Of a DNA stretch of 50,841 nucleotides, positions 8,282 to 47,681 are shown one piece after another. The stretch's first letter is position 1; each line of letters begins with the position of its first letter. The notes under the pieces were generated by a model. That model was not told where the DNA came from. It saw only the letters and a list, made by a program, of their open reading frames with translations, and did no database searches. The translations under genes and the position numbers were made by a program. Source of the stretch: Nanobdellota archaeon (lineage in GTDB: Archaea > Nanobdellota > Nanobdellia > Pacearchaeales > GW2011-AR1); NCBI GenBank assembly GCA_020053375.1, contig JAGVNG010000005.1, positions 1-50,841 on the forward strand, given 5' to 3'.

Positions 8282-8542
8282 TTATATGAGATCTTCCTCA
8301 GATACTATTACAAAGTCCCCTATTGCTATGATGGCGCTGTAAGGGATAAGGAGCTCGCTGGTGTTTGTTCTTTCAAGGTTTAGATTCTTTGTGTAGGGGG
8401 TGGAATCCTTTACGACCACGTTTATCAATTCCCCTGATTTGGTCTCAAAGAGAATATCTCTGACAAAACCTAATCTCTTCCCCTCCTTCGTGACAATCAT
8501 CTTTCCCAACAGAGAACTGAAAGGATTTTTACTTGCTTGCAT
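8282..8542 (-). CDS. PRC-barrel domain protein (CdpB-like small PRC protein)
   Basis: LLGKMIVTKEGKRLGFVRDILFETKSGELINVVV ... IPYSAIIAIGDFVIV is the PRC-barrel signature. Confidence 0.75.
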   Translation of the reverse strand: MQASKNPFSSLLGKMIVTKEGKRLGFVRDILFETKSGELINVVVKDSTPYTKNLNLERTNTSELLIPYSAIIAIGDFVIVSEEDLI

Positions 8543-8589
8543 CCTTTTCTGAAATGTGAATAATTTATAAAGTTTTCTGTAAAATCAAA

Positions 8590-11801: not shown

Positions 11802-11803
11802 GA

Positions 11804-12403: not shown

Positions 12404-12404
12404 A

Positions 12405-12890
12405 ATGGAAAATAAAGCACATTTAATATCTGTCACTGGAATAATAATCAAAGAGGGAAAATATCTGATTACTCGCAGGAGTTTAAATAAAAAAAGCTTT
12501 CCAGGGAAGTGGACAGTACCGGGAGGAGGTCTTGAATTAGAGGATTACATCAACCTTCCTAAAGACACAGCTCACCATTGGTATAATATTTTTGAAAAGA
12601 TTGTAAGAAGAGAAATAAGGGAAGAAGTTGGATTAGAAGTTAAAAATATAAAATACCTGACAAGTATGACACTAATTAGACCCGATGGATTTCCTGGTCT
12701 GATTGTCAGCCTTTATGCTGATTATTCTGAAGGAGAAGTAAAATTAGATGAGGAATCTATGAATTTTAAATGGGTTAGTTTGGAGGAAGCCAAGGAATAT
12801 GATTTAATAGACGGCATTTATGACGAATTGGTAATGTTGGATAATCTTCTGAAAGGTGAAAATCAAGAGGAGTGGAAGAAGATAAAATGA
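12405..12890 (+). CDS. Nudix hydrolase
   Basis: The Nudix box GGGLELEDY...REIREEVGLEV (Gx5Ex7REUxEExGU) is present. The gene starts 1 nt after the preceding stop. Confidence 0.85.
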   Translation: MENKAHLISVTGIIIKEGKYLITRRSLNKKSFPGKWTVPGGGLELEDYINLPKDTAHHWYNIFEKIVRREIREEVGLEVKNIKYLTSMTLIRPDGFPGLIVSLYADYSEGEVKLDEESMNFKWVSLEEAKEYDLIDGIYDELVMLDNLLKGENQEEWKKIK

Positions 12891-15800
12891 ACATCCAGCA
12901 ATATTTCAAAGACATAGAAAACGGGACAAAGGCAGTCTATGCAATAGCCGAGAAGGCAAGAGAAAAAGGACTGGATCCCGTCGATAAGGTTGAGATACCT
13001 CTTGCAATGACAATGGCTGAAAAAGTAGTTGCCCTGGTTTCCACGATATACCCTCAAATGGAAGGCACGGGAATTGACAAGAGAATAATTGAACTGGAAA
13101 GAGAGCATGGAAAGCTGGATGTCGCCGTTGTTTTCAAGATAGCCGAGGAAATTGCAAAACAGAAATTTTGCAGATTTGACAGCTTGCTTCACGCAATCGA
13201 TGCCGGAATAAGAATAGGCTTTGCATATAATACCCTAGGGGTTGTTTCGTCCCCCATAGAAGGATTCACAGAACTTAAACTGGCAAAGACAGCCAAGGGA
13301 GAAGATTATTTTGTCGCGTATTTTTCAGGGCCAATAAGAAGCGCAGGCACCACTGCCGCCAGTGTTGTATTAATTTTAATAGATTACCTCAGAGAAATGT
13401 TTGGCTACGCAAGATATGATCCCCGAGAAGAAGAAGTGAAGAGAACTGCCACAGAACTTTTGGATTATCATGAAAGAATAACCAACCTCCAATATATGCC
13501 TACGGAAGAAGAAATATTATTCATTGCAAGAAACCTTCCATTTCAGGTTAATGGAGAAGCCTCTGAAACACTAGAAGTTTCAAATTATAAAAATCTTGAC
13601 AGGATAGAAACAAATTATGTAAGAGGGGGGATGTGCCTTATTCTTGGGGAAGGCTTGGCGCAAAAAGCAAAAAAAGCATTTAGATTGCTAAAGAGCCTAA
13701 AGGCGAGAGGATTCAAATCATCCGGATTTGATTTTCTTGAAGAATATATAAAGCTTCATGAAAAAAGGGAAATTGGAAAAGCGGACGAATCTCCAACTTA
13801 CATAAAAGATCTGGTTGCAGGCAGGCCCATCTTCGGACATCCTTCGAGGTCAGGAGGATTTAGGTTTAGATACGGGAGGGGAAGGACCTCCGGATTCAGC
13901 GCATTTTCTTTGCATCCAGCGACGATGGCAATAACAGACGATTTTATTGCAATAGGAACACAGCTGAAAATTGAGAAGCCAACAAAAGGAGGAGTAGCAA
14001 CGAGCTGCGATACAATAGAGGGGCCAATAGTAAAACTTTTTAATGGAAGCGTAAAAAAAATAAGGAATAAAGCAGAAGCAAAAAAACTTTATTCTGACAC
14101 TGAAGAGATAATTTATTTGGGAGATATTCTGTTTCCATTCAGCGATGTGGCAAACAGAAATTTTGCCTTAATTAAGCCAGGGTATGTAGAAGAATGGTGG
14201 AGTTTGGAATTAAGGGAAAAAGACCCAGAACTTGAAAAAGAAATTGATAAATTTAATGTTGGCATTGAGCAGGCAATTGATTTGAGCCAAAAACTTTCAA
14301 TTCCTCTCCATCCAAAGCATATCTTTTACTGGACAGAAATATCCATTGATGAATTTTTTGGATTGATAGACTGGATAAGATATTCAAGGGTTGCTGGAAA
14401 ACTTATTCTTCCATACAGGAAAAATGACCAGGATAAATTCAAGCTTGGAAAACGGGCGCTAGAACTTTTGGGAATAGAGCATGATGTAACAATAGAAGAT
14501 GTTGTACTATCAAAGGAAAACAGCAAGGCATTATTTGCTAATCTTGGAATAGACCTTCGGCTTCTTGAAAAGGAAGAACAATTGTCAAATGATATTATAG
14601 ATGCGGCAAAGCTTGACAGAGAAAAATCTGTTTTGGAGATAGTCAATCTTATGTCCAGATTTATTATAAAAGACAAAGCAGGAGATTTCATTGGTGCAAG
14701 AATGGGAAGGCCCGAAAAGGCAAAACTGAGAAAACTTGTCGGAAGCCCGAATGTTTTGTTTCCCATCGGAACAGAAGGGGGGAGACTGAGAAGCGTTCAG
14801 GCCGCATGCGAAGTTGGAACAGTGAGAAGCAGCTTTCCGATGAAATTCTGCGAGAAATGCAACAAGGAAACAATTTATCCTGCATGCGAGGATTGCGGAG
14901 ATAAAGCAAGGAAAATGTATTATTGCTACATGTGCAAAACCAAATCTTTCTTTAAATGCAATGAGCATCCTCTAAAAAGCCAGCCATACTCAACCAGTTC
15001 GCTCGAGATAAACAATTATTTTGAAAAAGCGCTAAAGAAATCAGGACTGACAAGAGAAGAAGCCCCTCTTTTGGTTAAGGGGGTGAGAGGGATGTCTTCT
15101 TTGTCAAAAGCAACCGAGAATCTAACAAAGGGAATTCTGAGAGCAAAGCATAACTTACAGGTGAATAAGGATGGAACAATAAGGTTTGATGTGACAGAGC
15201 TTCCTCTTATTTGCTTTAAGCCAAAAGAAATTTCAACAAGCATTGAAAAACTGAGAGAATTGGGATACACCAAGGACATTGATGGAAATGAGCTGATAAA
15301 TGACGAGCAGATTCTTGAATTAATGCCCCATGATATCCTATTGCCGAGCGCACAGGCTCCGCATGATGAAAAAGCGGATGATGTTTTTGTAAACATTGCC
15401 AATTTTATTGACGATCTTCTAGTCAATTTTTACGGACTTGACAGAATATACAATGTTAAAAAAAGAGAGGACCTGGTCGGACACATGGGAGTATGCATGG
15501 CCCCCCACAATTGCGCAGGGGTAATATGCAGGATAATAGGATTTGCAAATGTCCTGGGATTGTTTGCAAGTCCTTACATGCACGCAGCCATAAGAAGAGA
15601 CTGCGACGGAGATGAAGCTGCGATAATGTTGCTGGGAGATGTTTTGTTGAATTTTTCAAGAGAGTTCCTGCCAAGCCACAGGGGGGGCACGCAGGATGCT
15701 CCGTTGGTTTTGAACGCCAAGATAGATGCAGGAGAGGTTGACGAACAGATTTTAGATTTTGAGTTTGTAAGAGAATATCCCCTGGCGCTTTATCAGATGG

Positions 15801-16351
15801 CTGAGACTCGAAAACATTCTTCCGAGGTCAAAATAAATGACTTAAGAACACTTATGAAAGAAAAAAGAAATACCTTTGAGGGAATGGGTTTCACCCATAA
15901 CACCTCCAACTTTAATGATGGTGTAGTTTGCTCAAGCTACAAGACTCTCGCCACTATGCAGGACAAGGTAAAACATCAGATGGAATTGGTTGAAAAAATA
16001 AGGGCTGTTGATGCCGTCGATACTGCCCGACTAATAATTGAGAGGCATTTTCTGAAGGATTTGAGAGGCAATTTAAGGGGGTTTTCCATGCAGGAATTTA
16101 GATGTGTTGCATGCAATGAAATAATGAGAAGACCGCCCTTGGCAGGAAAATGTCAGGCTTGCGGAGGAAAAATTATATTCACAATAAATGAGGGAGGAAT
16201 AAAGAAATACTTAGAGCCTGCCCTTGATCTGGCAAATAAGTATAATCTTTCGGTTTATCTCAAGCAAAGTCTTGAACTTACTAAGAGATACATCGAGAGC
16301 ATATTCGGGAAAGAAGCCGACAAACAGGAAGCGTTGGGGAAGTGGTTCTAG
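12887..16351 (+). CDS. polC: DNA polymerase II (PolD) large catalytic subunit DP2. No intein is apparent.
   Basis: About 1150 aa. The N-terminus YFKDIENGTKAVYAIAEKAREKGLDP is typical of DP2, several Cys4 zinc clusters are present, and the C-terminus has CVACN...CQACGG. The ATG at 12887 overlaps the Nudix TGA (ATGA). The track ORF starts at an in-frame GTG at 12872. Confidence 0.95.
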   Translation: MNIQQYFKDIENGTKAVYAIAEKAREKGLDPVDKVEIPLAMTMAEKVVALVSTIYPQMEGTGIDKRIIELEREHGKLDVAVVFKIAEEIAKQKFCRFDSLLHAIDAGIRIGFAYNTLGVVSSPIEGFTELKLAKTAKGEDYFVAYFSGPIRSAGTTAASVVLILIDYLREMFGYARYDPREEEVKRTATELLDYHERITNLQYMPTEEEILFIARNLPFQVNGEASETLEVSNYKNLDRIETNYVRGGMCLILGEGLAQKAKKAFRLLKSLKARGFKSSGFDFLEEYIKLHEKREIGKADESPTYIKDLVAGRPIFGHPSRSGGFRFRYGRGRTSGFSAFSLHPATMAITDDFIAIGTQLKIEKPTKGGVATSCDTIEGPIVKLFNGSVKKIRNKAEAKKLYSDTEEIIYLGDILFPFSDVANRNFALIKPGYVEEWWSLELREKDPELEKEIDKFNVGIEQAIDLSQKLSIPLHPKHIFYWTEISIDEFFGLIDWIRYSRVAGKLILPYRKNDQDKFKLGKRALELLGIEHDVTIEDVVLSKENSKALFANLGIDLRLLEKEEQLSNDIIDAAKLDREKSVLEIVNLMSRFIIKDKAGDFIGARMGRPEKAKLRKLVGSPNVLFPIGTEGGRLRSVQAACEVGTVRSSFPMKFCEKCNKETIYPACEDCGDKARKMYYCYMCKTKSFFKCNEHPLKSQPYSTSSLEINNYFEKALKKSGLTREEAPLLVKGVRGMSSLSKATENLTKGILRAKHNLQVNKDGTIRFDVTELPLICFKPKEISTSIEKLRELGYTKDIDGNELINDEQILELMPHDILLPSAQAPHDEKADDVFVNIANFIDDLLVNFYGLDRIYNVKKREDLVGHMGVCMAPHNCAGVICRIIGFANVLGLFASPYMHAAIRRDCDGDEAAIMLLGDVLLNFSREFLPSHRGGTQDAPLVLNAKIDAGEVDEQILDFEFVREYPLALYQMAETRKHSSEVKINDLRTLMKEKRNTFEGMGFTHNTSNFNDGVVCSSYKTLATMQDKVKHQMELVEKIRAVDAVDTARLIIERHFLKDLRGNLRGFSMQEFRCVACNEIMRRPPLAGKCQACGGKIIFTINEGGIKKYLEPALDLANKYNLSVYLKQSLELTKRYIESIFGKEADKQEALGKWF

Positions 16352-35576: not shown

Positions 35577-37868
35577 ATGAACTTTAAAGAAGGGACAAAG
35601 ATCTACGCATATGAAGTAAGAAGAGAGGGAGGAGAGGATATACTCTATGTAAATTATATGGGGGCTCCATATGTTCCTAGCCTTGAAGATTCGGGGGAAG
35701 TAATGGAAAGGACAATTGATTTCTTGATAGAAAATCCCCAAGCATCGAGAATTGTATTTGTTCAGCAGAAAAATTATAATTATGATTTCAGAGAAACATT
35801 GATGCTTTTGGAAATAGCCCAGAGATATGTTTTTCTTCTGAAGCAGGAAAAAGTCTTGTCACAGGAAAAATTAATCAGTCCTGGATGTGAGCAGTTTTTT
35901 TCCCAAAGATATAATGAATTGTTTTCATTTCTTTTTCTTCTAAAGCGGGACCCGATATTAGCTTACAGCGATCTCAACAGGCTGAGAATTGAAGCCAAAA
36001 TTTCTCTTGATAAAAAAAATGACAAATATAAGAATGATCAGTCAAGTTACATAAGACTCCTAGAGAAAATAATTGGACTTCTAGAGAATACTAAAATCAT
36101 TCAAGAGATAACGCCTTATCTGAATGAATATTCCTCTGGAGACCGGAATATTTACCACAAGATTTTCAAAGTGGATACAATACCTAATTTTACATTTACT
36201 CGATTGGTTTCAGACCTGCCGTCAGACGCCGAGATAGTGAATCAATATAAGATTATTGGAGACGATTATGATGAATCTCTTGTCACCATCTTAAAAAAGA
36301 AAAATGAGCCTAAATTTATTTATCATCTTATTCCTCCTGAAAACACGCTTTCAGAAGACCATAATATTCTTCTGAATCTTGCGAGGGGCGTTTTGATAGA
36401 ACATCAGCCAAAGGCAGAAGAATTTGTTGATACTGAGAGAACAAGGCAGGTTTTTTTCAACATTTCAAGAGACTTGTTGCAGGATTTAGCGCAGACGAAA
36501 AAGATATCTCTTTCTTTTTCGGATGTTAATAAATTAGCCACAATTCTTGTCAGGCATACAATCGGTTTTGGACTCATTGAAGTTTTGCTGCAGGATAAAA
36601 AATTGCAGGATATTTCCCTAAATGCCCCTATACCAATGACTTCTGTTTTTGTAAGACATCAGGATTATGATGAATGCATTACAAACATACTTCCAAGCCA
36701 GGAAGATACTGACTCTTGGGCTGCGAAGTTTAGATTAATTTCAGGAAGACCGCTTGATGAAGCAAATCCAATATTAGACACACAATTGGAAATAGGAAAA
36801 ATTCGTGCAAGAATAGCAATTATCCAGCGACCCTTGTCCCCCGACGGGCTTGCATATTCAATAAGAAGACATAGGGAAGAGCCATGGACACTTCCATTAT
36901 TTATACAAAATAAAATGATTAATCCTTTTGCTGCCGGATTGATGAGTTTCATGGTAGACGGTGCTAGAACGATACTGGTCGCAGGAACAAGAAGTTCTGG
37001 TAAGACTTCATTGCTTGGGAGTCTTATGCTTGAGATAATTCCAAAGTTTAGAGTCATAGTGATAGAAGATTCGTTGGAGTTGCCGGTAGAATCCCTTAGA
37101 AAATTAGGGTATGATATTTTGAGAATGAAAGTCCGTTCCGCGTTGCTGAAAACAACTTCCGAAATGTCTGCCGATGACGGAATAAGAACAAGCCTTAGAC
37201 TTGGAGATAGCTGTCTGATTATTGGAGAAGTAAGAAGCGTTGAAGCAAAAGCACTTTATGAGGCAATGAGAATAGGCGCTTTGGCTAATGTTGTGGCGGG
37301 AACCATTCACGGAGCTTCTCCTTATGCTGTTTTTGATAGAGTTGTTAATGATTTGGAGGTTCCAATAACCAGCTTCAAAGCAACTGATTTAGTCGCGGTG
37401 GCGAATCCAATAAAATCTGCAGATGGGTTGCATTCTTGGAAGAGGCTTCTCCAGTTTGCAGAAGTAAGAAAACATTGGAAGCAGGACCCTCTTCTGGAAA
37501 AGGGTTTTGTTGATTTACTGAGATATAATGTAGAGAAGGACGAGCTCGAGCCGACAGAGGATTTGATAAATGGGGAGAGTGAGATAATAAAGGACATAGC
37601 TTCAAATGTAAGAGGATGGGCTGGAAATTGGGATGCAGTATATGACAACATTCTTTTGCGGGCTAAAATAAAAAAAGAACTTGTTGATACTGCGCAGAAA
37701 ATAGGGGATATGAATCTTCTTGAATCAGAGTTTAATACCCTCGCAAATCATTCATTTCACGAGATATCTGACAATGTAAGCAAGGAAATAGGACTTCCAA
37801 TGTCAAGCAGGGTTTTTCCCGAATGGCAGAAGTGGCTAAATCAGGAAGTTAAGAAAAGGAGAATCTGA
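35577..37868 (+). CDS. Type II/IV secretion-family ATPase (PilB/FlaI/VirB11-like) with a long N-terminal extension
   Basis: Walker A is VAGTRSSGKTSLL. The Asp box / Walker B are RVIVIEDSLEL and LIIGEVRS. The His box is GTIHGASP. About 400 aa lie N-terminal to the ATPase core. Confidence 0.85.
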   Translation: MNFKEGTKIYAYEVRREGGEDILYVNYMGAPYVPSLEDSGEVMERTIDFLIENPQASRIVFVQQKNYNYDFRETLMLLEIAQRYVFLLKQEKVLSQEKLISPGCEQFFSQRYNELFSFLFLLKRDPILAYSDLNRLRIEAKISLDKKNDKYKNDQSSYIRLLEKIIGLLENTKIIQEITPYLNEYSSGDRNIYHKIFKVDTIPNFTFTRLVSDLPSDAEIVNQYKIIGDDYDESLVTILKKKNEPKFIYHLIPPENTLSEDHNILLNLARGVLIEHQPKAEEFVDTERTRQVFFNISRDLLQDLAQTKKISLSFSDVNKLATILVRHTIGFGLIEVLLQDKKLQDISLNAPIPMTSVFVRHQDYDECITNILPSQEDTDSWAAKFRLISGRPLDEANPILDTQLEIGKIRARIAIIQRPLSPDGLAYSIRRHREEPWTLPLFIQNKMINPFAAGLMSFMVDGARTILVAGTRSSGKTSLLGSLMLEIIPKFRVIVIEDSLELPVESLRKLGYDILRMKVRSALLKTTSEMSADDGIRTSLRLGDSCLIIGEVRSVEAKALYEAMRIGALANVVAGTIHGASPYAVFDRVVNDLEVPITSFKATDLVAVANPIKSADGLHSWKRLLQFAEVRKHWKQDPLLEKGFVDLLRYNVEKDELEPTEDLINGESEIIKDIASNVRGWAGNWDAVYDNILLRAKIKKELVDTAQKIGDMNLLESEFNTLANHSFHEISDNVSKEIGLPMSSRVFPEWQKWLNQEVKKRRI

Positions 37869-37953
37869 GTTTTTTTAATCCCAAAATTTATTAACTTTTA
37901 TTGAATTTTTCCAAGGATAATATTTATAAACTTGTGGAACAAATATATTCCAT

Positions 37954-38502
37954 ATGGAACGAAAAGATTACAAATTAGAAGTAATCGGCGAACTGTTGAG
38001 CAGAAAATCGCATGCCCGTGCTCTTGCCAAAAAAATGAGCACCAATCATACTACTATATTAAGAAAGCTCAATGAACTTTATGCGGAAAATGCTGTTGAT
38101 TATGACAAAGAGGGAAAAAACAAATCTTATTTTTTAAAAAAGACTTCAGAAGCCAAGACTTATGCCTTTATGGCGGAAAACTATAAACTAAAAAAAGCCC
38201 TTGGGAAATACCCTATTTTAAGAAATGTCATTGAAAAAATACGGGAAAACCGAGCCATTAAGATTGCTATCCTTTTTGGCTCTTATGCAAAATTTTCCGC
38301 TAACAAGGAAAGTGATATAGATGTATATGTAGATACTTTAAGTCAGAAGCTTAAACAGGAAATAGAAAAAATAGATTCGAGAATTAATGCAAAGATAGGC
38401 AGGTATGATGGAAAAAACCTGTTAATCAAGGAAATAGAAAAAAATCATATAATAATAAAAGGAGTTGAAAATTTTTATGAACGAAATAGATTTTTTGAAT
38501 AA
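37954..38502 (+). CDS. Winged-helix plus minimal nucleotidyltransferase (MNT-type antitoxin-like)
   Basis: The N-terminal wHTH is RALAKKMSTNHTTILRKLNELYAENAV. The NTase motif is ILFGSYAKFSANKESDIDVYVD. Confidence 0.75.
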   Translation: MERKDYKLEVIGELLSRKSHARALAKKMSTNHTTILRKLNELYAENAVDYDKEGKNKSYFLKKTSEAKTYAFMAENYKLKKALGKYPILRNVIEKIRENRAIKIAILFGSYAKFSANKESDIDVYVDTLSQKLKQEIEKIDSRINAKIGRYDGKNLLIKEIEKNHIIIKGVENFYERNRFFE

Positions 38503-38971
38503 ATTAAAAAAAGAAGGCAGACTTGGACCAACTGAAATGAGCAATGAGATAAAAATGTCTTATTTGAAAAAATCTGAAAGTAATATCTTTTCAGCCAAAC
38601 TATTGCTTGAAAATGAAAAGTTGGAAGAGGCTATCTCTTTGGCATATTACAGCATGTACAATATGTTGCTTGCTCTTTTATTTAATACGGGCATCAAGAG
38701 TGAAAATCATTCTGCCTCAATTATTCTTTTAAATATGATCTTTGGATTGGATAATTCAGGCATCTTAAGAGCAAAAAAAGAAAGAATACAATCTCAGTAT
38801 TATGTTAATTTTAAACTAAAAAAACAGGAAGTTAAGGATTTATTAAAGATAACTGAAGATTTCAATGCGGGAACTCTTGACTTCATATCAAAACTTACCA
38901 ATGACAGGATTAATGCCTATAGGAATAAATTTATTAAAATGATAAAATTTGATATAAACAAGGGAGACTAA
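38477..38971 (+). CDS. HEPN-domain protein (toxin-like partner of the MNT)
   Basis: It is all-helical. AISLAYYSMYNMLLALLFNTGIKSENHSASI is followed by KKERIQSQYY, the HEPN PF05168-like pattern. It overlaps the NTase gene by 26 nt. Confidence 0.65.
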   Translation: MNEIDFLNKLKKEGRLGPTEMSNEIKMSYLKKSESNIFSAKLLLENEKLEEAISLAYYSMYNMLLALLFNTGIKSENHSASIILLNMIFGLDNSGILRAKKERIQSQYYVNFKLKKQEVKDLLKITEDFNAGTLDFISKLTNDRINAYRNKFIKMIKFDINKGD

Positions 38972-38984
38972 AAGAGATGATAAA

Positions 38985-41138
38985 ATGCCTGATGTAAAAG
39001 ATATTCTTAGAAAATATGGAAGCAAGATAGAAGGACAGATTAACACCTCCAATATGAAGGGAGGCGATTACAGCCAGGAATATACCAGATTCAAAGAGGA
39101 GATGGCTCCAGAACTTTCAAAATATGAAAGATGGTGCAGAAGCCTTGGAAATATAATAAAATTAAATATTGCCGAGAAAGACAAGACGGCAATAAAGAGG
39201 CAGCTTGAAATTGCGCATCTTGATGTTGAGCCTTCCCAAGCGCTGACTTTGAGCGTTATGGCATTTGTAGGTGTTTTTTTAATAGGACTCTTGGTTTCTG
39301 TCGCGGTAATGCTGATTAATGAAACCATCGAATCATTTCCATTTCTGTTTTTTATCCTGATGGTTGTTTTTTCAGTGTTTCTTTTTTATTTCGTGAATGG
39401 ATATCCTGCGCGACTGGCGAATAAATGGCGGCTAAAAGCAAGCAGTCAGATGGTTCCTGCCATTCTTTATGTTGTTGTATATATGAGGCACACGCCTAAT
39501 TTAGAAAAAGCAATTGGTTTTGCATCAGAGCACTTGCAATATCCACTTGCATTAGATTTCAAGAAGGTATTTTATGATGTTGAAATAGGCAGATTTTCGA
39601 CAATAAAAGACAGTTTGGATAATTATCTTGAGACATGGAGAGATTACTCTATTGAATTCATAGAATCATTCCACCTTATCGAAAGCAGTTTGTTTGAGCC
39701 AGATAATCTGAGGAGAATAACCATACTCGAAAAGTCATTGCAGGTTGTTTTAGATGGGGTATATGAAAAGATGCTTAAATTCACGCATGACGTGCGAAGC
39801 CCATTGAATACAGTGTATATGCTTGGAGTTGTTCTTCCCACACTTGGAGTGGTGCTTATCCCTCTCGCTTCCGCAATGATTGGTGAACTGATAAAGACTA
39901 TTCATGTGTTCATACTTTTTAATTTAATAATTCCTTTTTTGGTTTTTTATCTTACGGATAAGATAATGTTGCTGAGGCCAGGAGGACATGGAGAAACAGA
40001 GTTATTGGAAAGAAATCCATTATATTACAAATACAAGACAAACAAACCATATGCTGCCGCGTTTCTTCTGACATTCCCTCTCTTTGTATTGGGCATGCTT
40101 CCATTGATATTTGGATTTACTCCCCTTCCAGAGATGATTGGACTTCAGAAAGATTATACTTTCGTTGAACTAGGAATGGGATTCCTTGGAAACGAGCAGT
40201 TGTTTGGGTTTATCTCAGATGCTTCCGGAACAACGGGGCCATTTGGAATAGGCGCATTGATGTTCAGCATGCTTGTTCCCTTGTCAATTGCCCTGTTCTT
40301 TTCAATGGCATTCAAGGAAAAGACGGAGGAGCTTATTGTAGAAAGGGAAAAAACAAAACAGCTCGAAGCAGAGTTCAACAATTCATTGTTCCAGCTGGGA
40401 AACAGGATAGGAAACGGGATTCCTCCAGAAATAGCTTTTGGAAAAATTGCAGAGTCTTCAAAAGGGTTAAGGACAGAGGATTTTTTCAGAAGAGTCAATT
40501 ATAACATAAGGCAAGGGGGAATGAGTGTTGAGAATGCGATATTCAACCAAAGCACGGGAGCACTGAGATATTATCCCTCTGAATTAATCTCCACCAGTAT
40601 GAAAATTCTTGTTGAATCTGCAAAGAAAGGCTTGAGCATCGCTGCGCTCAGCTTAATGAGCATTTCCGAATATGTCAAAAACATCCACAAGATAAACCAG
40701 AGACTTCAGGATATGCTTGCAGAGATAGTTTCTGATATGAAGAGCAACATGACATTCCTTGCTCCATTACTGTTGGGTGTTGTTGTCGGACTGGCGGCGA
40801 TGATAACAGCTATATTGAATAAGTTAGATCTTTCAGAATTAAGCGGAGCGGATTTAGGCGGAATATCAAATTTTGTTGGAGAAGATGGAATTTTCCAATT
40901 AAGTCAAATGATTCCTCCTTATTATCTTCAGTTGATTATAGGTGTGTACATAATAGAAATAATATTCATCCTGACAACAACCCTTGTTACGATAGACTCC
41001 GGAGAAAACAAGCTTGAAAGAACATATAATGCAGGAAGGAATTTCTCAAGAGGAATATTCCTTTATTTCATAGTCGCGGTTGTCTCTGTGCTCGCGTTGT
41101 TCCTATTGTCGTCTATTGTATTGGGAAATATAATATAA
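38985..41138 (+). CDS. Polytopic membrane protein, the putative pilus assembly platform (FlaJ/TadC/PilC-like)
   Basis: At 717 aa it has two blocks of TM helices separated by soluble helical domains. It occupies the position next to the secretion ATPase that is typical of archaeal T4P loci. The family call rests on context and topology only. Confidence 0.55.
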   Translation: MPDVKDILRKYGSKIEGQINTSNMKGGDYSQEYTRFKEEMAPELSKYERWCRSLGNIIKLNIAEKDKTAIKRQLEIAHLDVEPSQALTLSVMAFVGVFLIGLLVSVAVMLINETIESFPFLFFILMVVFSVFLFYFVNGYPARLANKWRLKASSQMVPAILYVVVYMRHTPNLEKAIGFASEHLQYPLALDFKKVFYDVEIGRFSTIKDSLDNYLETWRDYSIEFIESFHLIESSLFEPDNLRRITILEKSLQVVLDGVYEKMLKFTHDVRSPLNTVYMLGVVLPTLGVVLIPLASAMIGELIKTIHVFILFNLIIPFLVFYLTDKIMLLRPGGHGETELLERNPLYYKYKTNKPYAAAFLLTFPLFVLGMLPLIFGFTPLPEMIGLQKDYTFVELGMGFLGNEQLFGFISDASGTTGPFGIGALMFSMLVPLSIALFFSMAFKEKTEELIVEREKTKQLEAEFNNSLFQLGNRIGNGIPPEIAFGKIAESSKGLRTEDFFRRVNYNIRQGGMSVENAIFNQSTGALRYYPSELISTSMKILVESAKKGLSIAALSLMSISEYVKNIHKINQRLQDMLAEIVSDMKSNMTFLAPLLLGVVVGLAAMITAILNKLDLSELSGADLGGISNFVGEDGIFQLSQMIPPYYLQLIIGVYIIEIIFILTTTLVTIDSGENKLERTYNAGRNFSRGIFLYFIVAVVSVLALFLLSSIVLGNII

Positions 41139-41169
41139 AAATTTATAAATGATTAATTCATATTATAGA

Positions 41170-41280
41170 AATGGTAAATGAAGATCCATATAACCCTAAG
41201 TCATCAACATGGAAATGGATAGTTGGGATTGGAATCCTTGCTATTGTCTATTTTGCTTTGAAATATTTTGGAATAATATA
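41170..41280 (+). CDS. Micro-ORF, 36-aa single-TM peptide
   Basis: MVNEDPYNPKSSTWKWIVGIGILAIVYFALKYFGII. A TATA-like AAAATTTATAAAT lies about 20-30 nt upstream of the ATG. It falls below the ORF-track cutoff. Confidence 0.3.
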
Positions 41281-41294
41281 ATTTAATTTTTTAA

Positions 41295-41311
41295 TCAGTT
41301 AAATTTATTAA
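41295..41311 (+). promoter_or_regulatory. Copy 1 of a repeated 17-mer, TCAGTTAAATTTATTAA, containing a TATA-like box
   Basis: It is identical to 41559..41575 and ends 21 nt before the ATG at 41333. Confidence 0.4.
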
Positions 41312-41332
41312 TCTTATATCCTATCCTCTGGA

Positions 41333-41566
41333 ATGGATTGGAAACCTCTTTTAACAGGCATATTATTTCTATTAGACGCTCTTTTAGGATATGGCGGGAG
41401 CAATAGTTCCTTTTATTATGCGCCTGGAATAATGTTTTTAGCAGGCGGATTTGTGGGAAAAGAATTATTTAATGGAAAAATTATTAGTTTTGTCACTTGG
41501 ATTTGCTTAATTATTAGTATTATCATGTTTGTTTCTGGAATAATGGGAATAAATTTATTCAGTTAA
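41333..41566 (+). CDS. Small membrane protein (77 aa, three TM helices)
   Basis: It is hydrophobic throughout and is preceded by the TATA-like 17-mer. Confidence 0.4.
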   Translation: MDWKPLLTGILFLLDALLGYGGSNSSFYYAPGIMFLAGGFVGKELFNGKIISFVTWICLIISIIMFVSGIMGINLFS

Positions 41567-41575
41567 ATTTATTAA
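41559..41575 (+). promoter_or_regulatory. Copy 2 of the repeated 17-mer TCAGTTAAATTTATTAA
   Basis: It is identical to 41295..41311 and ends 21 nt before the ATG at 41597. Confidence 0.4.
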
Positions 41576-41596
41576 ATGGAAGTTGTTTTTCTACTT

Positions 41597-41746
41597 ATGA
41601 AAAAAAGAGGTATTGTTGCAGATTATATTCCCTGGTTGATTATAGGAATTGCAGTTTTGGCAATAGTTATGATTGCCTTGTTTCTTTTAAGGGGACAGGG
41701 AGAAGGACTTATAGACAGAATTAAAAGTTTATTTGGAGGTATTTAA
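41597..41746 (+). CDS. 49-aa pilin-like peptide with a class III signal peptide
   Basis: MKKRG/IVADYIPWLIIGIAVLAIVMIALFLL has a basic leader ending in RG followed by a hydrophobic helix. It falls below the ORF-track cutoff. Confidence 0.45.
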   Translation: MKKRGIVADYIPWLIIGIAVLAIVMIALFLLRGQGEGLIDRIKSLFGGI

Positions 41747-41757
41747 TTTAATACAAA

Positions 41758-41925
41758 ATGACGGAAGAGCTAAGCATTGGTTATACAATCAAAATTATAT
41801 TGGGGCTCCTAGTGATAATAGCTGTTGTTGCAGGAATTTATCTTATCTTTAAGGATAAGATAATTGTCTTTTTCAAAAATCTTCCTGTTGGAAATGTGTC
41901 AAAGATATTTTTGAGTTTGATATAA
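41758..41925 (+). CDS. Micro-ORF, 55-aa single-TM peptide
   Basis: MTEELSIGYTIKIILGLLVIIAVVAGIYLIF... It falls below the ORF-track cutoff. Confidence 0.35.
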   Translation: MTEELSIGYTIKIILGLLVIIAVVAGIYLIFKDKIIVFFKNLPVGNVSKIFLSLI

Positions 41926-41967
41926 AATAATCTTTTCAAAAAAGATTAGACAAAACTAAGAAAGAAG

Positions 41968-42450
41968 ATGAAAAAAAATAAGAGGGGTTTTTTTCTTGCA
42001 GAGGAAACTCTAAAGATAGTGCTGGCCGTGATTGTTATAATCTTTCTGATTTATTTTCTCGCATCCCTTTATTTCTCGGGCAAGGACTCGGAAGATTTGA
42101 AACTTGCAGAGGAGTCAATGAACTATTTGAATGAGCAGATGGGTTTGAAATCTACAGAAGTTCAAATTTATAATCCGAAAGGATGGATAATAACTGCATG
42201 GGAGACGGGGGGAGAAATGCCTCTTCAATGCTCTAACTTAGGATGGAAAAACTGCGTATGTTTTTGTGAAAGACATTTTGATTATTTGGGATTTTTCAAA
42301 AATACTCCTTTAGAAGATTGTAATGAAGACAATTATTGTCTTGAATATAACAAAGAAGTCTTTATTAAAGACAACGCTCTTAGGATAGATAATTCTCCAA
42401 TTACACTTGAAATAAACTACGGGGACAAAATAGAGGTAAGCAAAAAATAA
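41968..42450 (+). CDS. Pilin-like protein with a class III signal peptide (160 aa)
   Basis: MKKNKRG/FFLAEETLKIVLAVIVIIFLIYFL has Glu at +5 after the predicted cleavage. The globular part is Cys-containing. Confidence 0.6.
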   Translation: MKKNKRGFFLAEETLKIVLAVIVIIFLIYFLASLYFSGKDSEDLKLAEESMNYLNEQMGLKSTEVQIYNPKGWIITAWETGGEMPLQCSNLGWKNCVCFCERHFDYLGFFKNTPLEDCNEDNYCLEYNKEVFIKDNALRIDNSPITLEINYGDKIEVSKK

Positions 42451-42551
42451 TGGAGTTAGAAACTTTTATTAAAACGATAGGATGGCTGGTTGTCTTTGGG
42501 ATAGCAATAATTGCAATTTTTAGTTTAAAGGGTGCAGGAGTTTTAGGATAA
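42450..42551 (+). CDS. Micro-ORF, 33-aa single-TM peptide
   Basis: MELETFIKTIGWLVVFGIAIIAIFSLKGAGVLG. Its ATG overlaps the preceding TAA by 1 nt. Confidence 0.3.
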   Translation: MELETFIKTIGWLVVFGIAIIAIFSLKGAGVLG

Positions 42552-42557
42552 TCCAAA

Positions 42558-43319
42558 ATGAGAAAAACTTTATCATTAAGAAAAGGAATGTCAAAGAGGG
42601 GGGAGCTGACGACCCAGCAGATAATAATGATAATAATTCTTATTGCAAGCTTTGTGATTCTTTTGTATTTCCTTTTCAGAATAAATCCCGCTGAAACAAG
42701 CTCCAAGCAGATATGCTATAATTCTGTTGTTTTATTGGATAAGGGAAGCGGGCTGGTCGGAAGCTTGGATTGCAAAACCAATTATCTTTGCCTGTCAGGG
42801 GGAGATGGATGCGCTGACTTCAATCCAACCGTCACTGCGAGTGTTGACCCCTCTAAGAAAGAGGGGGTCATGAAAGAGATTGCAGATGAAATGGCTGACT
42901 GCTGGTGGATGTTTGGAGAAGGAAAGATAAATTATGGAACTGCAGAAGGCACATCCATAAAATATGCTCTGTGCTCCATAATAGAATTTGACAAGAAGGT
43001 TCAGGAGAAGGTTCCAGAGATTTCTTATTCTGAATTATACCAGTATATGCAAGCACACCAATCTTCACATGCAACTTCTCAAAGTTATCTTCAGTATTTA
43101 TATGGAGTAAATGATGTTAATCTTTTAGTGGTTCAGTCGCAATTTCATGTAAATGTAGCGCAGGATAAAATTGACACTAGTAAAAAATATTCAATAATTA
43201 CAGGAATAGATGATAATGTTTCTCCTTTTGCTGATGAGTATTTTAAGGTTTACATAATTCCTACTGCCGAGACATCATTCAAAATTGTCGCAGGGGAATT
43301 CATAACCAAAGCTTCCTAG
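42558..43319 (+). CDS. Pilin-like protein with a class III signal peptide (253 aa)
   Basis: MRKTLSLRKGMSKRG/ELTTQQIIMIIILIASFVILLYFLF. Confidence 0.6.
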   Translation: MRKTLSLRKGMSKRGELTTQQIIMIIILIASFVILLYFLFRINPAETSSKQICYNSVVLLDKGSGLVGSLDCKTNYLCLSGGDGCADFNPTVTASVDPSKKEGVMKEIADEMADCWWMFGEGKINYGTAEGTSIKYALCSIIEFDKKVQEKVPEISYSELYQYMQAHQSSHATSQSYLQYLYGVNDVNLLVVQSQFHVNVAQDKIDTSKKYSIITGIDDNVSPFADEYFKVYIIPTAETSFKIVAGEFITKAS

Positions 43320-43355
43320 CAATAATTTTATTAAGTAGTTTTATCTTTTTTACTT

Positions 43356-43802
43356 ATGAACAAAATAAGGGGAAAAGAAAAAAACCTTCGGTTTTTTAAT
43401 CCTTCGCTTTTTCCAAAATCGAGAAAAGGGGACGTGCTTATAGGCGAGGTCATATTTCTTGTGCTAAACCTTGTTTTTCTTTCAATCCTTATCATATTTG
43501 TAATTTCAAAGACAAATGATGCTTCCCTCCTAGAAGAAAAATATGCAAAACAAATAGCATTGGTCATAGACTCCGCAAAACCGGGAATGACAATTCACAT
43601 AAACATGGAGGATGCAATCAAAAAAGCGCAGGATGAAAAGCAGGACATCAAAGGAATTGTCAAAATAAATGATAATATTGTTACATTAAAGCTTAAGGAA
43701 AAAGGGGGTTATCCATATTCATTTTTCAATGATATAAGCGCGAATGCCTATCTGGACACGGGCAATAATAAGGAGTATGTTATTGTCATAACTGAAAAAT
43801 AA
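43356..43802 (+). CDS. Pilin-like protein with an extended conserved leader (KNLRFFNPS type), copy 1
   Basis: MNKIRGKEKNLRFFNPSLFPKSRKG/DVLIGEVIFLVLNLVFLSILIIFVI. Confidence 0.6.
   Translation: MNKIRGKEKNLRFFNPSLFPKSRKGDVLIGEVIFLVLNLVFLSILIIFVISKTNDASLLEEKYAKQIALVIDSAKPGMTIHINMEDAIKKAQDEKQDIKGIVKINDNIVTLKLKEKGGYPYSFFNDISANAYLDTGNNKEYVIVITEK
43379..43429 (+). repeat. 51-nt leader element, copy 1 (28-nt identical core plus second dyad)
   Basis: AAAAAACCTTCGGTTTTTTAATCCTTCG + CTTTTTCCAA + AATCGAGAAAAGG. Confidence 0.85.
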
Positions 43803-43814
43803 AATATCTTGGCA

Positions 43815-44333
43815 ATGAAAAATAAAATAATTTTTGGAAAAAGGGGGTCGGAAACAACTATAACCATTTACTGGTTTGCAATACTGATGATAGTTGCGGT
43901 TGCTATTGTTTATATGGTAACTTCTGCATATGGGAAGCCGTATGATGTTCGTGGAATTGAAGCAGATATACTTGCTAATAATATTGCGGATTGCATAAGT
44001 CAAGGGGGATATGTAAATGCAAATACCCTCGCAGATTCTTCCTTCAAGGCAAAGTTTCTAGAGCAATGCAAACTGAATTTCAAAACTGAGGAGGGATTTG
44101 CGGACGCCAGTGGGGAATATTATGCTGAAGTAATCTCATACGATTTTGACACAAACAAAAGAACTAATTCAGACATATCCTATGGAAATCTTGTTCTAAA
44201 ACAGTATTGTGAATTAAAGGGAACAACTCTTCCAGTATGCACACGAAAGAATATTTATCTTATTGACGAACAGCAGAATAAATATGGGGTTACTATTCTT
44301 ACAGTTGTAAACAAGGCAGAGAAAAACGCATGA
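43815..44333 (+). CDS. Pilin-like protein with a class III signal peptide (172 aa from ATG 43815)
   Basis: MKNKIIFGKRG/SETTITIYWFAILMIVAVAIVYMV. Confidence 0.6.
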   Translation: MKNKIIFGKRGSETTITIYWFAILMIVAVAIVYMVTSAYGKPYDVRGIEADILANNIADCISQGGYVNANTLADSSFKAKFLEQCKLNFKTEEGFADASGEYYAEVISYDFDTNKRTNSDISYGNLVLKQYCELKGTTLPVCTRKNIYLIDEQQNKYGVTILTVVNKAEKNA

Positions 44334-44857
44334 TGATAAAAAACAAAAAAAACCTTCGGTTTTTTAATCCTTCGATTTCTTTGAAATCGAGAAAAGGACA
44401 GATATCAGAAGGAATAACATGGGTGGTTGCAACCATAGCCATCATAATTATTTTGTTAGTTTCCATATCTCTCACCTCTTTTTATACGAAAGATAGGGAA
44501 ATCAAAAAAGATTTTTTCAGGGATAGCACCAATCAAAAAACAGTCTTAAGTTATTTGTTGACAAAAGAGGATAACGGAGAGATTGTTTATTTGGATATAA
44601 AAAAGGAAGGCAATCTTAAAGATGTCAGTGGCAATCTCGCACTGAAAATTTTTAATGGACTTTACAAGGACAGATATCAGCAGATGTGGGTAGGGGTTAG
44701 CAGCCTTGGAGAAGGGGTCATCTCAACAAGCCTTAATGGTGTTGAGAATGAGTTTTTCGGAAAAAAAATGCTTTTGATACACAGAGAATCCTATTCTTCA
44801 TTGGTTCCTTTTGACAAAACTAAATTTTTTGAGGCAATTTTTGTGAGAAAACCTTGA
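44330..44857 (+). CDS. Pilin-like protein with an extended conserved leader (KNLRFFNPS type), copy 2
   Basis: MMIKNKKNLRFFNPSISLKSRKG/QISEGITWVVATIAIIIILLVSISL. The start overlaps the previous stop (ATGA). Confidence 0.6.
   Translation: MMIKNKKNLRFFNPSISLKSRKGQISEGITWVVATIAIIIILLVSISLTSFYTKDREIKKDFFRDSTNQKTVLSYLLTKEDNGEIVYLDIKKEGNLKDVSGNLALKIFNGLYKDRYQQMWVGVSSLGEGVISTSLNGVENEFFGKKMLLIHRESYSSLVPFDKTKFFEAIFVRKP
44347..44397 (+). repeat. 51-nt leader element, copy 2
   Basis: It has the same 28-mer, followed by the perfect dyad TCGATTTC-TTT-GAAATCGA (44372..44390). Confidence 0.85.
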
Positions 44858-44861
44858 TAAA

Positions 44862-45221
44862 ATGAAAAAAAACCTTCGGTTTTTTAATCCTTCGATTCTT
44901 CCAGAATCGAGAAATGGTGACATGCCAACGCTTATACTTGTAGTAGGGATTTTCTTAGTATGCGGGCTGACTGTTTTTAGCCTGATTATTTCTTTGGGGT
45001 CATTTGAAAAAAGCTTTGGGGTGCTGGAGAACATGGTCGCGGTTAATTCAATGGCTGACCAGATAAGATTTTATGAAAATGTAGGGCTGGATCCAACAAG
45101 TTTTTTGGATATAACAAAAGAGAACAATGCCTATAATATCACATCTAAAAAAACAGAAAAAGAAAAAATAGTCTTTTATATTGAGTATATAATTCCCGCA
45201 AATACTCCCGCCCCCAAATAA
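44862..45221 (+). CDS. Pilin-like protein with an extended conserved leader (KNLRFFNPS type), copy 3
   Basis: MKKNLRFFNPSILPESRNG/DMPTLILVVGIFLVCGLTVFSLII. Confidence 0.6.
   Translation: MKKNLRFFNPSILPESRNGDMPTLILVVGIFLVCGLTVFSLIISLGSFEKSFGVLENMVAVNSMADQIRFYENVGLDPTSFLDITKENNAYNITSKKTEKEKIVFYIEYIIPANTPAPK
44867..44917 (+). repeat. 51-nt leader element, copy 3
   Basis: It has the same 28-mer, followed by the perfect dyad TCGATTC-TTCCA-GAATCGA (44892..44910). Confidence 0.85.
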
Positions 45222-45255
45222 AAACATTTTTAAACAAAACTAACCTCCCTGGGAT

Positions 45256-45597
45256 ATGATTGGAGATAAAAGAGGACAGGGATTAAGCACAAGCACAATT
45301 GTTCTGCTAATATTGGCGGTTGCTGTTCTTGTTATACTGGTGCTGGGATTTACAATAGGATGGAGCAAGTTCCTTCCTTTCCTCAATACAAATAATGTTC
45401 AGGATATAAAAACAGCCTGCGCAACGGCATGTTCGACAGAAAGCACTTTTGATTTCTGCACAACTCCGAGGGAAGTAAATGACAAGGTTAATACTAAGTT
45501 TACAGACACGTGCGATAAGTTGGCAAATGATGCAAAATACACTGTTAGAAATTATGCAATAGCTAAATGTCCTACCATCACATGTACTGCGGCTTAA
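45256..45597 (+). CDS. Pilin-like protein with a canonical class III signal peptide and a Cys-rich head. It is the candidate major pilin.
   Basis: MIGDKRG/QGLSTSTIVLLILAVAVLVILVLGFTIG. The 113-aa protein has six Cys in its C-terminal half and is the last pilin gene before the peptidase. Confidence 0.65.
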   Translation: MIGDKRGQGLSTSTIVLLILAVAVLVILVLGFTIGWSKFLPFLNTNNVQDIKTACATACSTESTFDFCTTPREVNDKVNTKFTDTCDKLANDAKYTVRNYAIAKCPTITCTAA

Positions 45598-45857
45598 ACA
45601 TTAGTTCTTAATTAAAAAAATGGATGATTATACTTTTTCTGATAAAAGAAACAAGAGAAAAAGCAAGTTAAAAGAAAAGAAAAAACATCCTTATAAGAAA
45701 GGCGGTTTCTCACGAAGCATGAATTTTGGGAAGAAGAAATAAGATTGTTAATGTTAAAGCATAATTCCCAGATAGGATTGCCTGGTAAGTTATAGGTAAA
45801 TTAATTTTATATTAAACTTCCCGTTCATTTTATAAATATAACTCGCTGATTTATTAT

Positions 45858-46703
45858 ATGTTGGAACTGTTTTTAATTATCTTAGCATTTATATGGCTGA
45901 TTTTTGCAGTAGTGAGCGATTTGAGAACAAGGGAGATTCCAAACTGGCTTAATTTTTCCCTCATAATATTTGCATTGAGTGGCAGATTGTTTTATTCTGT
46001 TTTCAGCGGTCCTGACTGGAGTTTTTTTATTCAGGGAGTTTTTGGCTTCGCGGTTTTTTTTGCAATTGCTAATCTGCTTTATTACGGAAGATTTTTTGCA
46101 GGAGGAGATGCAAAATTACTGATGGCTCTTGGACCTATTCTTCCGTTTGGAACAAGCCTTTTATCAAATGTTAGCTTATTTCTTTCTTTCTTGTCATTAT
46201 TCTTTATAGTCGGAGCTGCCTATGGTTTTGTGATGGTTTTGTATCTCAGCTTTAAGGACACCCAAAAATTAAAAAAGAGCTTTTTAAGAGGTATCAAGAA
46301 GAACAGAAAATCTTTCTTTATTTTTATGGGCATTGGACTCACGTTTATGCTTGCTGGACTGGCGGAGGAATTATTGTTTATACTGGGAGTTTTGATATTC
46401 CTTCTGCCTTACTTGTTCTTTTATACAAAAGCCATTGACAACACCTCACTTGTCAAGAGAATAAATGCTCAGGCGCTTACAGAAGGAGACTGGCTTTACA
46501 AAGACCTTCGGGTTGGAAAAAATATCATAAAAGCCAGATGGGAAGGATTAAGCAAAAGAGAAATTGCACTCATACGAAGAAAGTGTAAGTTTGTTTTGAT
46601 AAAGAGAGGAGTTGAATTTAGCCCTGTATTCCTGATAAGCTTTGTCTTTTTTGTATACTTTTATCTAAATGGAATGACTAATTTATGGAATTCTCTGTGG
46701 TAG
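45858..46703 (+). CDS. Prepilin/preflagellin peptidase (A24 family; PibD/FlaK/EppA-like)
   Basis: The two catalytic Asp motifs are VVSDLRTREIPNWL and FAGGDAKLLMALG (GxGDxK). The protein is polytopic. Confidence 0.8.
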   Translation: MLELFLIILAFIWLIFAVVSDLRTREIPNWLNFSLIIFALSGRLFYSVFSGPDWSFFIQGVFGFAVFFAIANLLYYGRFFAGGDAKLLMALGPILPFGTSLLSNVSLFLSFLSLFFIVGAAYGFVMVLYLSFKDTQKLKKSFLRGIKKNRKSFFIFMGIGLTFMLAGLAEELLFILGVLIFLLPYLFFYTKAIDNTSLVKRINAQALTEGDWLYKDLRVGKNIIKARWEGLSKREIALIRRKCKFVLIKRGVEFSPVFLISFVFFVYFYLNGMTNLWNSLW

Positions 46704-47357: not shown

Positions 47358-47681
47358 ATGCAGATTTCTGCAATATATTTGCATATAAATAGAAATCTTT
47401 ATATCCCTATTGTCTTTTTCTCTCTAAGGGATAAGAAAGGTAGGGAGATAGGCATACTAACAATAATTTTTATTCTTTTATTACCGAGTGTGATATGTGC
47501 TTTATTCTTTTATTATTCTTTAAATCTTCCCCTTTGGGTTATAGGAATTATATGGATAATCTTGGCTTGGACAACATTTAGAATCGTGCAAGATACCGAT
47601 AATGAATTGACTTATGGTATGGAAGAAGATGTGCGTAGGAGGGTTAAAAAAAGAATTGGTTTCTTTTTTTGGGTTTTTTAA
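47358..47681 (+). CDS. Hypothetical small membrane protein (107 aa)
   Basis: It has two central TM helices and a basic C-terminus. There is no other support. Confidence 0.35.
   Translation: MQISAIYLHINRNLYIPIVFFSLRDKKGREIGILTIIFILLLPSVICALFFYYSLNLPLWVIGIIWIILAWTTFRIVQDTDNELTYGMEEDVRRRVKKRIGFFFWVF

Follow-up and report, generated by a model that had tools for sequence, protein, structure and literature searches.

A 48-nt double-palindrome unit gained and lost in the leaders of archaeal pilin-like genes: a candidate palindromic mini-element

We analysed a 50,841-nt stretch of DNA from a Nanobdellota archaeon (contig JAGVNG010000005.1), hereafter the window, which carries a tandem array of pilin-like genes (41333-45597) with a T2SSE-type ATPase, a polytopic platform protein and an A24 prepilin peptidase as neighbours. 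Three genes of the array, c1 (43356-43802), c2 (44330-44857) and c3 (44862-45221), all on the + strand, contain within their leaders a unit of 48 nt, or 16 codons, that consists of two adjacent palindromes, and this unit is the subject of our analysis. The genes belong to a + strand run of paralogs (41968..45597) comprising c0 (41968), cB (42558), c1, cA (43809), c2, c3 and c4 (45256). In the products of c1-c3, a hydrophobic helix follows a basic leader that ends in K/N-G, and residue -1 of the predicted class III cleavage site is encoded by a Gly codon at 43428..43430 in c1, 44396-44398 in c2 and 44916-44918 in c3, on the + strand. The class III signature, K/R-G and then a hydrophobic N-terminus, was found in the three window genes and in more than 300 orthologues, and the mature N-termini begin right after G/A in all orthologues, irrespective of leader length. 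An initial annotation of the window had described the three gene bodies as diverged and the remaining pilin-like genes as short-leadered and free of the element. Both statements were borne out: c1, c2 and c3 are diverged outside the unit, and the other genes have short M-x-K[KR]G leaders.

The string AAAAAACCTTCGGTTTTTTAATCCTTCG has three exact matches in the window, on the + strand and with 0 mismatches (43379-43406, 44347-44374 and 44867-44894). In 100 shuffles the expected number of matches was 0, which led us to reject a chance origin of the three copies. The identity had been reported as 28 of 28 nt; the full identical stretch is in fact 29 nt long, beginning at 43378, 44346 and 44866. 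The A runs at the 5' edge (A7, A8 and A8), the 10 variable nt downstream of the shared string and the subsequent AATCGAGAAA(A/T)GG are present in all three copies, as annotated. The 48-nt units themselves lie on the + strand at 43377..43424 in the leader of c1 (copy 1), 44345..44392 in the leader of c2 (copy 2) and 44865..44912 directly 3' of the c3 ATG (copy 3), and score 80.8, 86.3 and 82.5 bits, respectively, with covariance model R1. Copy 1 corresponds to a clean 48-nt gap in the empty orthologues of L061, L075 and L066 (L numbers denote related loci), although flanking GAAAAG repeats leave its borders uncertain by about ±4 nt. A covariance model search with filters off found no further copies of the unit in the 50.8-kb window.

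Both dyads are 8-3-8 palindromes in each of the three copies. The first is perfect, in agreement with the initial annotation; it reads AAAAAACC-TTC-GGTTTTTT in copy 1 (43379..43397, no strand assigned) and occupies 44347-44365 in copy 2 and 44867-44885 in copy 3. The second lies at 43404..43422 in copy 1 (TCGCTTTT-TCC-AAAATCGA, one C/T mismatch, no strand assigned), 44372-44390 in copy 2 and 44892-44910 in copy 3. The annotated mismatch in copy 1 is real but the 7-5-7 geometry given for that dyad is not, and copy 3, thought to have lost one base from each arm, is a perfect 8-3-8 palindrome, TCGATTCT-TCC-AGAATCGA. Relative to the family consensus, copy 3 has one compensated pair in this dyad (T-A to C-G), and copy 2 has a different one, together with loop changes; each of these two compensated pairs is private to its copy. 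Between the window copies, hairpin 2 differs at 5-7 positions and the first 29 nt at none. The element encodes the peptide KNLRFFNPS-x4-SR(K/N)G, with a spacer of four residues and not the five previously stated.

Several side observations concern the sequence around these copies. Three minus-strand open reading frames (ORFs; 43331-43567, 44299-44475 and 44798-45034) have a common peptide …EGLKNRRFF… only because they cross the palindromic unit, and are unlikely to be genes. The 3' end of c2 contains GAGAAAACCTT (44838-44848, 20 nt 5' of the c3 ATG), which duplicates the 5' arm and loop of hairpin 1, AAAAACCTT (44869-44877). The orthologous site in the sister genome L002 (about 7494-7504) reads GGAAACCAT, and the hairpin-1 variant of L002 c0 (4604-4616) reads AAAAACCATCGG, with the same T/A difference; the match could be a coincidence or could reflect templating. 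An alternative structure, in which hairpin 1 would pair over the c3 start codon with the AAAACCTT repeat upstream, appears in neither the minimum-energy nor the centroid fold.

For comparison, we used 137 pilus loci, fetched by anchoring on the conserved gene of 174 aa that lies between c1 and c2, and two additional loci from protein look-ups. The related loci come from metagenome-assembled genomes of Woesearchaeota, Pacearchaeota and Nanoarchaeota, on which ground we place the organism among low-GC DPANN archaea. Orthologues of c1, c2 and c3 usually have leaders of 5-10 residues, and leaders of at least 15 residues occur in 10 c1, 23 c2 and 6 c3 orthologues. When filled and empty orthologous leaders were aligned, the difference was exactly 48 nt in 8 of 12 comparisons involving six paralogs (c0, cB, c1 with three pairs, cA, c2 and c3), several of them a single clean gap. 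A covariance model built from 14 close copies matches the leaders of seven paralogous pilin families (c0, cB, c1, cA, c2, c3 and c4), and all of its matches with E < 0.1 are on the gene strand.

The set of occupied genes varies from genome to genome. The window has the unit in c1, c2 and c3, whereas L002, whose anchor protein is 82% identical, has a full unit in c0 (empty in the window) and c2 and none in c1. L004 carries it in c0, cA and c3, with a copy reduced to hairpin 2 in cB, and L071 carries it in cB and c2. For c2, filled orthologues occur in L002, L063, L064, L067 and L071 and empty ones in L061, L066, L068 and L073; on the anchor-protein tree, filled and empty taxa are interleaved. 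Remnants were found in c3 of L002, L061 and L065, in cB of L002 and in c0 of L030 (hairpin 1 only); the remnant-like L002 c3 leader is 27 nt shorter and retains AAAATC-AT-AAAATC. Filled loci have 2-4 copies, all within the pilin cluster. These alignments show the unit as a discrete 48-nt segment that is patchily present and leaves remnants.

All copies are in frame, stop-free and absent from some orthologues, which is the behaviour of Rickettsia palindromic elements (RPEs). A bulge-helix-bulge intron or other untranslated element was rejected, as every copy is in frame and stop-free at 16 codons and no bulge-helix-bulge geometry is present. A recent duplication of whole genes, which the initial annotation had proposed to check, is refuted by L002, where each of the three genes has its own diverged orthologue.

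At the protein level, a search with an N-terminal profile (A1) gave 5 matches and one with a doubled leader profile (A6) gave 1, P0006. Viral contigs scanned for the pattern of hairpin 1 followed by hairpin 2 gave 0 matches. A second kind of long leader, seen in the c2 orthologues L109, L111 and L096 and in P0041/P0051, contains the cleavage motif twice, as in MNKNGQIGKLRCINSSKRG/QIG. This kind looks like an internal duplication of the leader/mature junction and not like the palindromic unit.

The nucleotides of the unit are more conserved than those of the genes around it. For c2 copies outside the window, identity is 84-95% over the 57 nt around the unit and 61-76% over the next 300 nt of the gene. 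Identical amino acids use the same codon in 140/153 cases in the unit versus 83/168 in the adjacent conserved helix, a tally in which the pairs are not independent. The synonymous sites of the element thus do not drift and those of the adjacent helix do, which answers the drift check suggested by the initial annotation. The motif AAATCARAGATTT moreover encodes N-Q-R-F in the close clade and in L001, L101 and L030, and K-S-K-I, in a frame shifted by one base, in L116, L050, L053 and L025. Base pairing is also maintained: in the 14 close copies, 97.5% of cells are paired with 4 double-sided pairs, and 0/500 shuffles were as good. In 34 copies 93.2% are paired versus 77.6% after shuffling, and 15/17 pairs covary, in an alignment that was fitted to the model and hence leans towards structure. 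The frozen codons, the kept pairing and the use of two frames therefore support a constraint that acts on the nucleotides and palindromes and not only on the peptide. In this respect the proposal of a constraint beyond the peptide stands, with double-sided changes in both stems, while its use of exact identity as the sign of selection does not.

These same data bear on a function of the peptide itself, in which a long basic and aromatic leader (K-N-x-R-F-F…F-P-K-S-R-K-G) would be selected for targeting, cleavage timing or recognition by the peptidase, and the palindromes would merely result from the use of AAA (Lys) and TTT (Phe) codons. Within the close clade the peptide is indeed conserved, the insert always ends with the K/R-G cleavage motif, and an exhaustive search found long leaders in roughly 6% of c2-type protein representatives, some with KNQRF-like motifs. 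However, such selection is unlikely because the same nucleotides are used in two reading frames, giving NQRFF or KSKIF. Synonymous codons are frozen where they should be free, differences between L053 and L050 are at least as often non-synonymous as synonymous (by eye), and most orthologues do with leaders of 5-10 residues. We therefore regard a peptide-level function as very improbable.

Whether the palindromes act as DNA or as RNA was judged from the kinds of base pairs and from the two strands. When the pairs of 35 copies were counted without regard to strand, 518 were Watson-Crick, 6 G·T, 16 A·C and 17 of other kinds, so that G·U is not in excess. The mean folding free energy (ΔG) is -10.9 for the + strand and -11.0 for the - strand. 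In the window, folding energies are modest (-10.8 to -15.5 kcal/mol), z-scores range from -0.15 to -2.8 and the strands are about equal. A sense-strand RNA signature was rejected on the ratio of 6 G·T to 16 A·C and on the equal mean ΔG of the strands. The strand symmetry and the lack of a G·U excess therefore lean us towards a constraint at the DNA level rather than on mRNA hairpins. The folding and covariance check proposed in the initial annotation gave a divided answer, with modest energies and weak z-scores on one side and pairing kept across relatives on the other, and the structure is backed by comparison with relatives rather than by folding energy. No Rfam match at E ≤ 1 was found in 41000-46000. 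Changes are concentrated at the hairpin tips (TC-AAA-GA to CC-TTC-GG; TTCCA to CTTTG), a pattern that would be expected from template-switch correction of quasi-palindromes (PMC8794818).

A host-selected cis-regulatory cassette is the main competing explanation, and we consider it possible, if tentative. Its hairpins and T5-T7 runs would set pilin stoichiometry by acting within the operon as a transcription attenuator or roadblock, on the upstream cistron as a 3' stabiliser or a processing signal, or as a brake on translation initiation. It would sit in the leader because compact operons leave no intergenic space, and recombination would shift it between paralogs. This explanation is favoured by the spacing of the genes, which overlap or sit 4 nt apart, so that each unit lies 8-105 nt past the upstream stop codon. 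Frozen synonymous sites, pairing preserved in situ by the compensated changes private to window c2 and c3, a hairpin-1 sequence kept across deep lineages and the strict location in pilin leaders all speak for a regulatory role, as do A/T-flanked hairpins at other gene ends of the window (47646-47670 and 6676-6695) and non-coding copies at the end of the pilin cluster in L044. The leader enrichment, the strong cross-lineage conservation and the lack of a visible mobilising enzyme fit it equally well. However, the unit is present in only about 1/5 of the loci, sits in different genes in sister genomes and often survives as decayed in-frame remnants. The absence of G·U enrichment and of a sense-strand advantage is unusual for a selected RNA structure, the folding z-scores are weak and there is no Rfam match. 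In addition, the T runs are broken in hairpin 2 of window c2 and c3 and in hairpin 1 of L050 and L001, and several hairpin-1 variants per genome run contrary to a sequence-specific reader.

Those variants also bear on why the three window copies are identical. In most relatives, hairpin 1 is AAAAAATC-AAA-GATTTTTT or a variant of it, and the CC-TTC-GG form occurs only in the three window copies and L004 cA, with a near variant, CC-ATC-GG, in L002 c0. Three hairpin-1 variants exist within L004 and two within L002, and a single sequence-specific operator co-evolving with a regulator was rejected on these grounds. The copies of L071 and of L025 have private variants common within their own genome; copies within one genome are homogenised. 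Because relatives have several hairpin-1 variants, three of them in L004 alone, the 28-29-nt identity in the window is best explained by recent copying or by short-patch conversion of the 5' half, and not by purifying selection. The initial annotation had taken this identity as a mark of selection, a reading that the variants, and the lack of an intact unit in c1 and c3 of L002, do not support. Nor does the identity pattern fit a genome-wide sequence-specific reader.

Identical 5' patches in three tandem genes, homopolymer runs of 7-8 nt and signs of conversion between copies could instead point to a recombination anchor or to phase variation, in which the 29 nt would be a homology patch for exchanging pilin bodies, or slippage in A7-A8/T6 would switch genes. 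Yet each gene has a single homology patch without a second anchor, and the mature parts are one-to-one orthologous with L002 with no sign of shuffling. No frameshifted copy was seen among about 35, and copies within a genome differ in L002, L004 and L063. We give this explanation hardly any credence, because no chimeras or frameshifted copies were seen.

The distribution of related repeats extends beyond the leaders in two loci. L044 has two tandem 82-nt units (5727-5880) that separate its last pilin gene from the peptidase gene, in DNA that is non-coding or holds small ORFs, and each contains hairpin 1 (AAAAATC-ATA-GATTTTT), then AGTTCG, then a larger second hairpin. L120 has a different repeat of 110-135 nt starting with AAAAAACCCTGCGGGTTTTT, which occurs once in an intergenic position and once in frame in a c2 pilin leader (3265-3400 and 4505-4610); the in-frame copy produces a 44-residue leader. 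Together, the repeats of L044 and L120 show that such repeats exist beyond leaders and that leaders are repeatedly used as landing sites. In our reading, the cassette is a member of a miniature-repeat family of Woese- and Pacearchaeota-type DPANN archaea.

Taken together, we favour, at about even confidence, the interpretation that the unit is a REP- or RPE-like self-propagating mini-element (REP, repetitive extragenic palindrome), which would be tolerated in frame because processing would remove the class III leader. In this model, the cassette would be copied seamlessly into the Lys-rich codons (…AAAG/…AGAAAAG/GG) just 5' of codon -1 (Gly/Ala) in class III signal peptides, would move mainly among the tandem pilin genes of one cluster and would be lost by precise or partial in-frame deletion. 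Its length is a multiple of three, it is stop-free and it adds Lys/Arg, so it could be tolerated, surviving only where it is in frame. The insert lies wholly within the leader part that the A24 peptidase of the locus presumably removes; it would probably be translated and then discarded, and the leader would serve as a safe harbour in which the cassette is near-neutral for the host. The palindromes would be kept at the DNA level if copying needs single-stranded-DNA hairpins, if template switching in the hairpin fixes mismatches, or both. Copying could occur by HUH/REP-like hairpin-dependent transposition or by copy-choice at AAAG microhomology. The left flank is AAAG in 10/14 close copies, and the unit has the 3' end …AGAAAAG, abutting the Gly/Ala codon; AAAG is also plain Lys-codon context.

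Several findings weigh against such an element. AAAG or GAAAAG stands at both ends of many copies, inseparable from the element's own ends or from microhomology, and any target-site duplication is ambiguous. In roughly 690 kb of sequence, about 35 copies lie in pilin leaders and two in non-coding DNA, and this restricted location counts against a free transposon, because such a transposon should also occupy intergenic DNA. A Pfam search of about 45 ORFs found no transposase, HUH or RAYT (REP-associated tyrosine transposase) gene in the 50.8-kb window. Terminal inverted repeats of the kind that define MITEs (miniature inverted-repeat transposable elements) are absent, as neither terminus, (G)AAAAAAATC at the 5' end or AAATCGAGA at the 3' end, is an inverted copy of the other; both palindromes lie inside the unit. 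Finally, cross-lineage conservation and in-situ compensated pairs, as in window c2 and c3, are also expected of a host-selected element, and neutral local conversion alone does not explain 95% identity between lineages whose synonymous sites are saturated.

A bolder version would combine mobility with an effect on expression. The unit would then be among the smallest known self-mobile elements, a two-hairpin single-stranded-DNA cassette of the IS200/IS605 or REP kind that inserts seamlessly, specifically targets class III Lys codons and has hairpins and T runs that attenuate the occupied pilin gene. We see this as a doubtful proposition; if true, moves of the cassette would change which pilins are abundantly produced, and DPANN episymbionts would have a novel way of varying their surface.

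The pilus machinery lies upstream of the array on the + strand (35577..41138), as assigned by Pfam and by synteny with L002. It includes the T2SSE-type ATPase (35577-37868, +, PF00437) and the 717-aa polytopic platform protein (38985-41138, +), and between these two genes a MNT/HEPN pair is inserted (37954-38971, +; Pfam). Pairs of MNT (nucleotidyltransferase) and HEPN proteins are typical toxin-antitoxin modules; in L002, the place of the pair is taken by a different 106-aa gene. The A24 prepilin/preflagellin peptidase gene follows the array (45858..46703, +, Pfam PF01478, E = 8.6e-14). A promoter-like AATAATTTTATTAAG (43322-43336), about 20-30 nt 5' of the c1 ATG, is kept in all close relatives, and AAAAACATTTTTAAACAAAACTA (45222-45244) upstream of c4 is conserved. 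The 14-nt motif TTWGACAAAACTAA occurs three times in the cluster (41946, 44810 and 45230). Two further perfect palindromes are flanked by A/T: TAATCTTTTCAAAAAAGATTA (41928-41948), between a small pilin-like gene and c0, and AAAAAAAGAATTGGTTTCTTTTTTT (47646-47670), at the end of ORF 47358-47681 with a convergent gene opposite. Both may be terminators or operators.

Beyond the pilus locus, the window is ordinary archaeal chromosome with genes for Cdc6/Orc1, PolD, TyrRS, Hef/XPF, RadA, aEF-1β and a XerA-like integrase. The cdc6/orc1 gene lies immediately 5' of the genes for the small and large subunits of PolD (9023-16351). The 0.8-kb gap before cdc6 (8150-9080) holds no origin repeats of at least 14 nt, and no origin-recognition boxes are evident there.

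If confirmed, the favoured model would mean that archaeal genomes of extreme compactness can lodge selfish or regulatory DNA in a disposable signal peptide, and it would extend the Rickettsia idea of selfish DNA in coding genes to DPANN archaea at the far smaller scale of 48 nt. The pili of this locus are probably attachment organs of episymbiotic archaea, and if the cassette has any influence on pilin dosage, this would be of direct consequence for their interaction with the host. The unit also counsels caution in inferring RNA structure, since strong covariation and frozen synonymous sites occur here without a strand-specific RNA signature. For annotation, gene callers may truncate long-leader pilin genes, and signal-peptide predictors meet atypical leaders. 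A word-indexed protein search seeded with the three window N-termini recovered only c3 (P0001) of the three window proteins, the exhaustive representative search returned c2 from its second ATG (P0007), and c1 appeared in neither protein search. The long-leader genes c1 and c2 may thus be called with other starts or missed.

Among archaeal pilins, the six Haloferax volcanii proteins PilA1-6 have an identical hydrophobic domain, an example of concerted evolution of the pilin N-terminus. They resemble the window genes in being paralogs with an identical 5' segment and an otherwise diverged sequence, but their common part is the mature hydrophobic helix, kept for function, whereas the unit is an optional palindromic insert in the leader. 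In the literature on archaeal pilin leaders we found nothing similar, nor does such a unit appear in a recent survey of type IV filament systems in archaea.

Template switching is known to create and maintain perfect stems (PMC8794818). The unit shares the expected features, namely perfect Watson-Crick stems, clustered multi-base changes at the tips and no G·U intermediates. However, template switching is a mutational mechanism and not an element, and it leaves the 48-nt gain and loss and the cross-lineage conservation unexplained.

REPs lie outside genes, number in the tens to hundreds and are marked by a GTAG/CGTC tag (PMC3733652). Like REP, BIME and REPIN sequences, which RAYT transposases mobilise, and IS200/IS605-derived elements, the unit is a very small hairpin repeat with compensated stems and seamless-looking gain and loss, lacks obvious terminal inverted repeats and adjoins a short conserved tetranucleotide, here AAAG. 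Traits that could recall IS200/IS605 are the AAAG left flank, the …AAAG right end, the two hairpins and the clean 48-nt gaps, with the same reservation about Lys codons. Such elements can also serve as mRNA stabilisers or terminators. The REP-type tetranucleotides GTAG and CGTC are absent from our alignments A3 and A4, and, unlike those systems, the unit has no RAYT/TnpA gene in the 50.8-kb window and shows no wide spread in the roughly 690 kb of sequence covered.

A MITE of Yersinia forms part of a signal peptide in one case (PMC2759123) and likewise is a small mobile repeat read in frame in an N-terminal signal sequence. That case is single, concerns a Sec-type signal and involves a mainly intergenic element of 168 bp, whereas the present unit is found in seven paralogous class III leaders. 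By behaviour, the unit also resembles the RPEs, selfish palindromic repeats that lie in frame in protein-coding genes (Ogata et al. 2000, reviewed in PMC10969869). Both are palindromic families that are translated in frame, patchy between related genomes and tolerated where the protein accommodates them, and both occur in reduced genomes of host-dependent microbes. RPEs, however, are about 100-150 bp long, insert into unrelated genes and stay in the mature protein, whereas this archaeal unit of 48 nt is almost wholly confined to the class III pilin leader of one gene cluster, a segment that is predicted to be cleaved.

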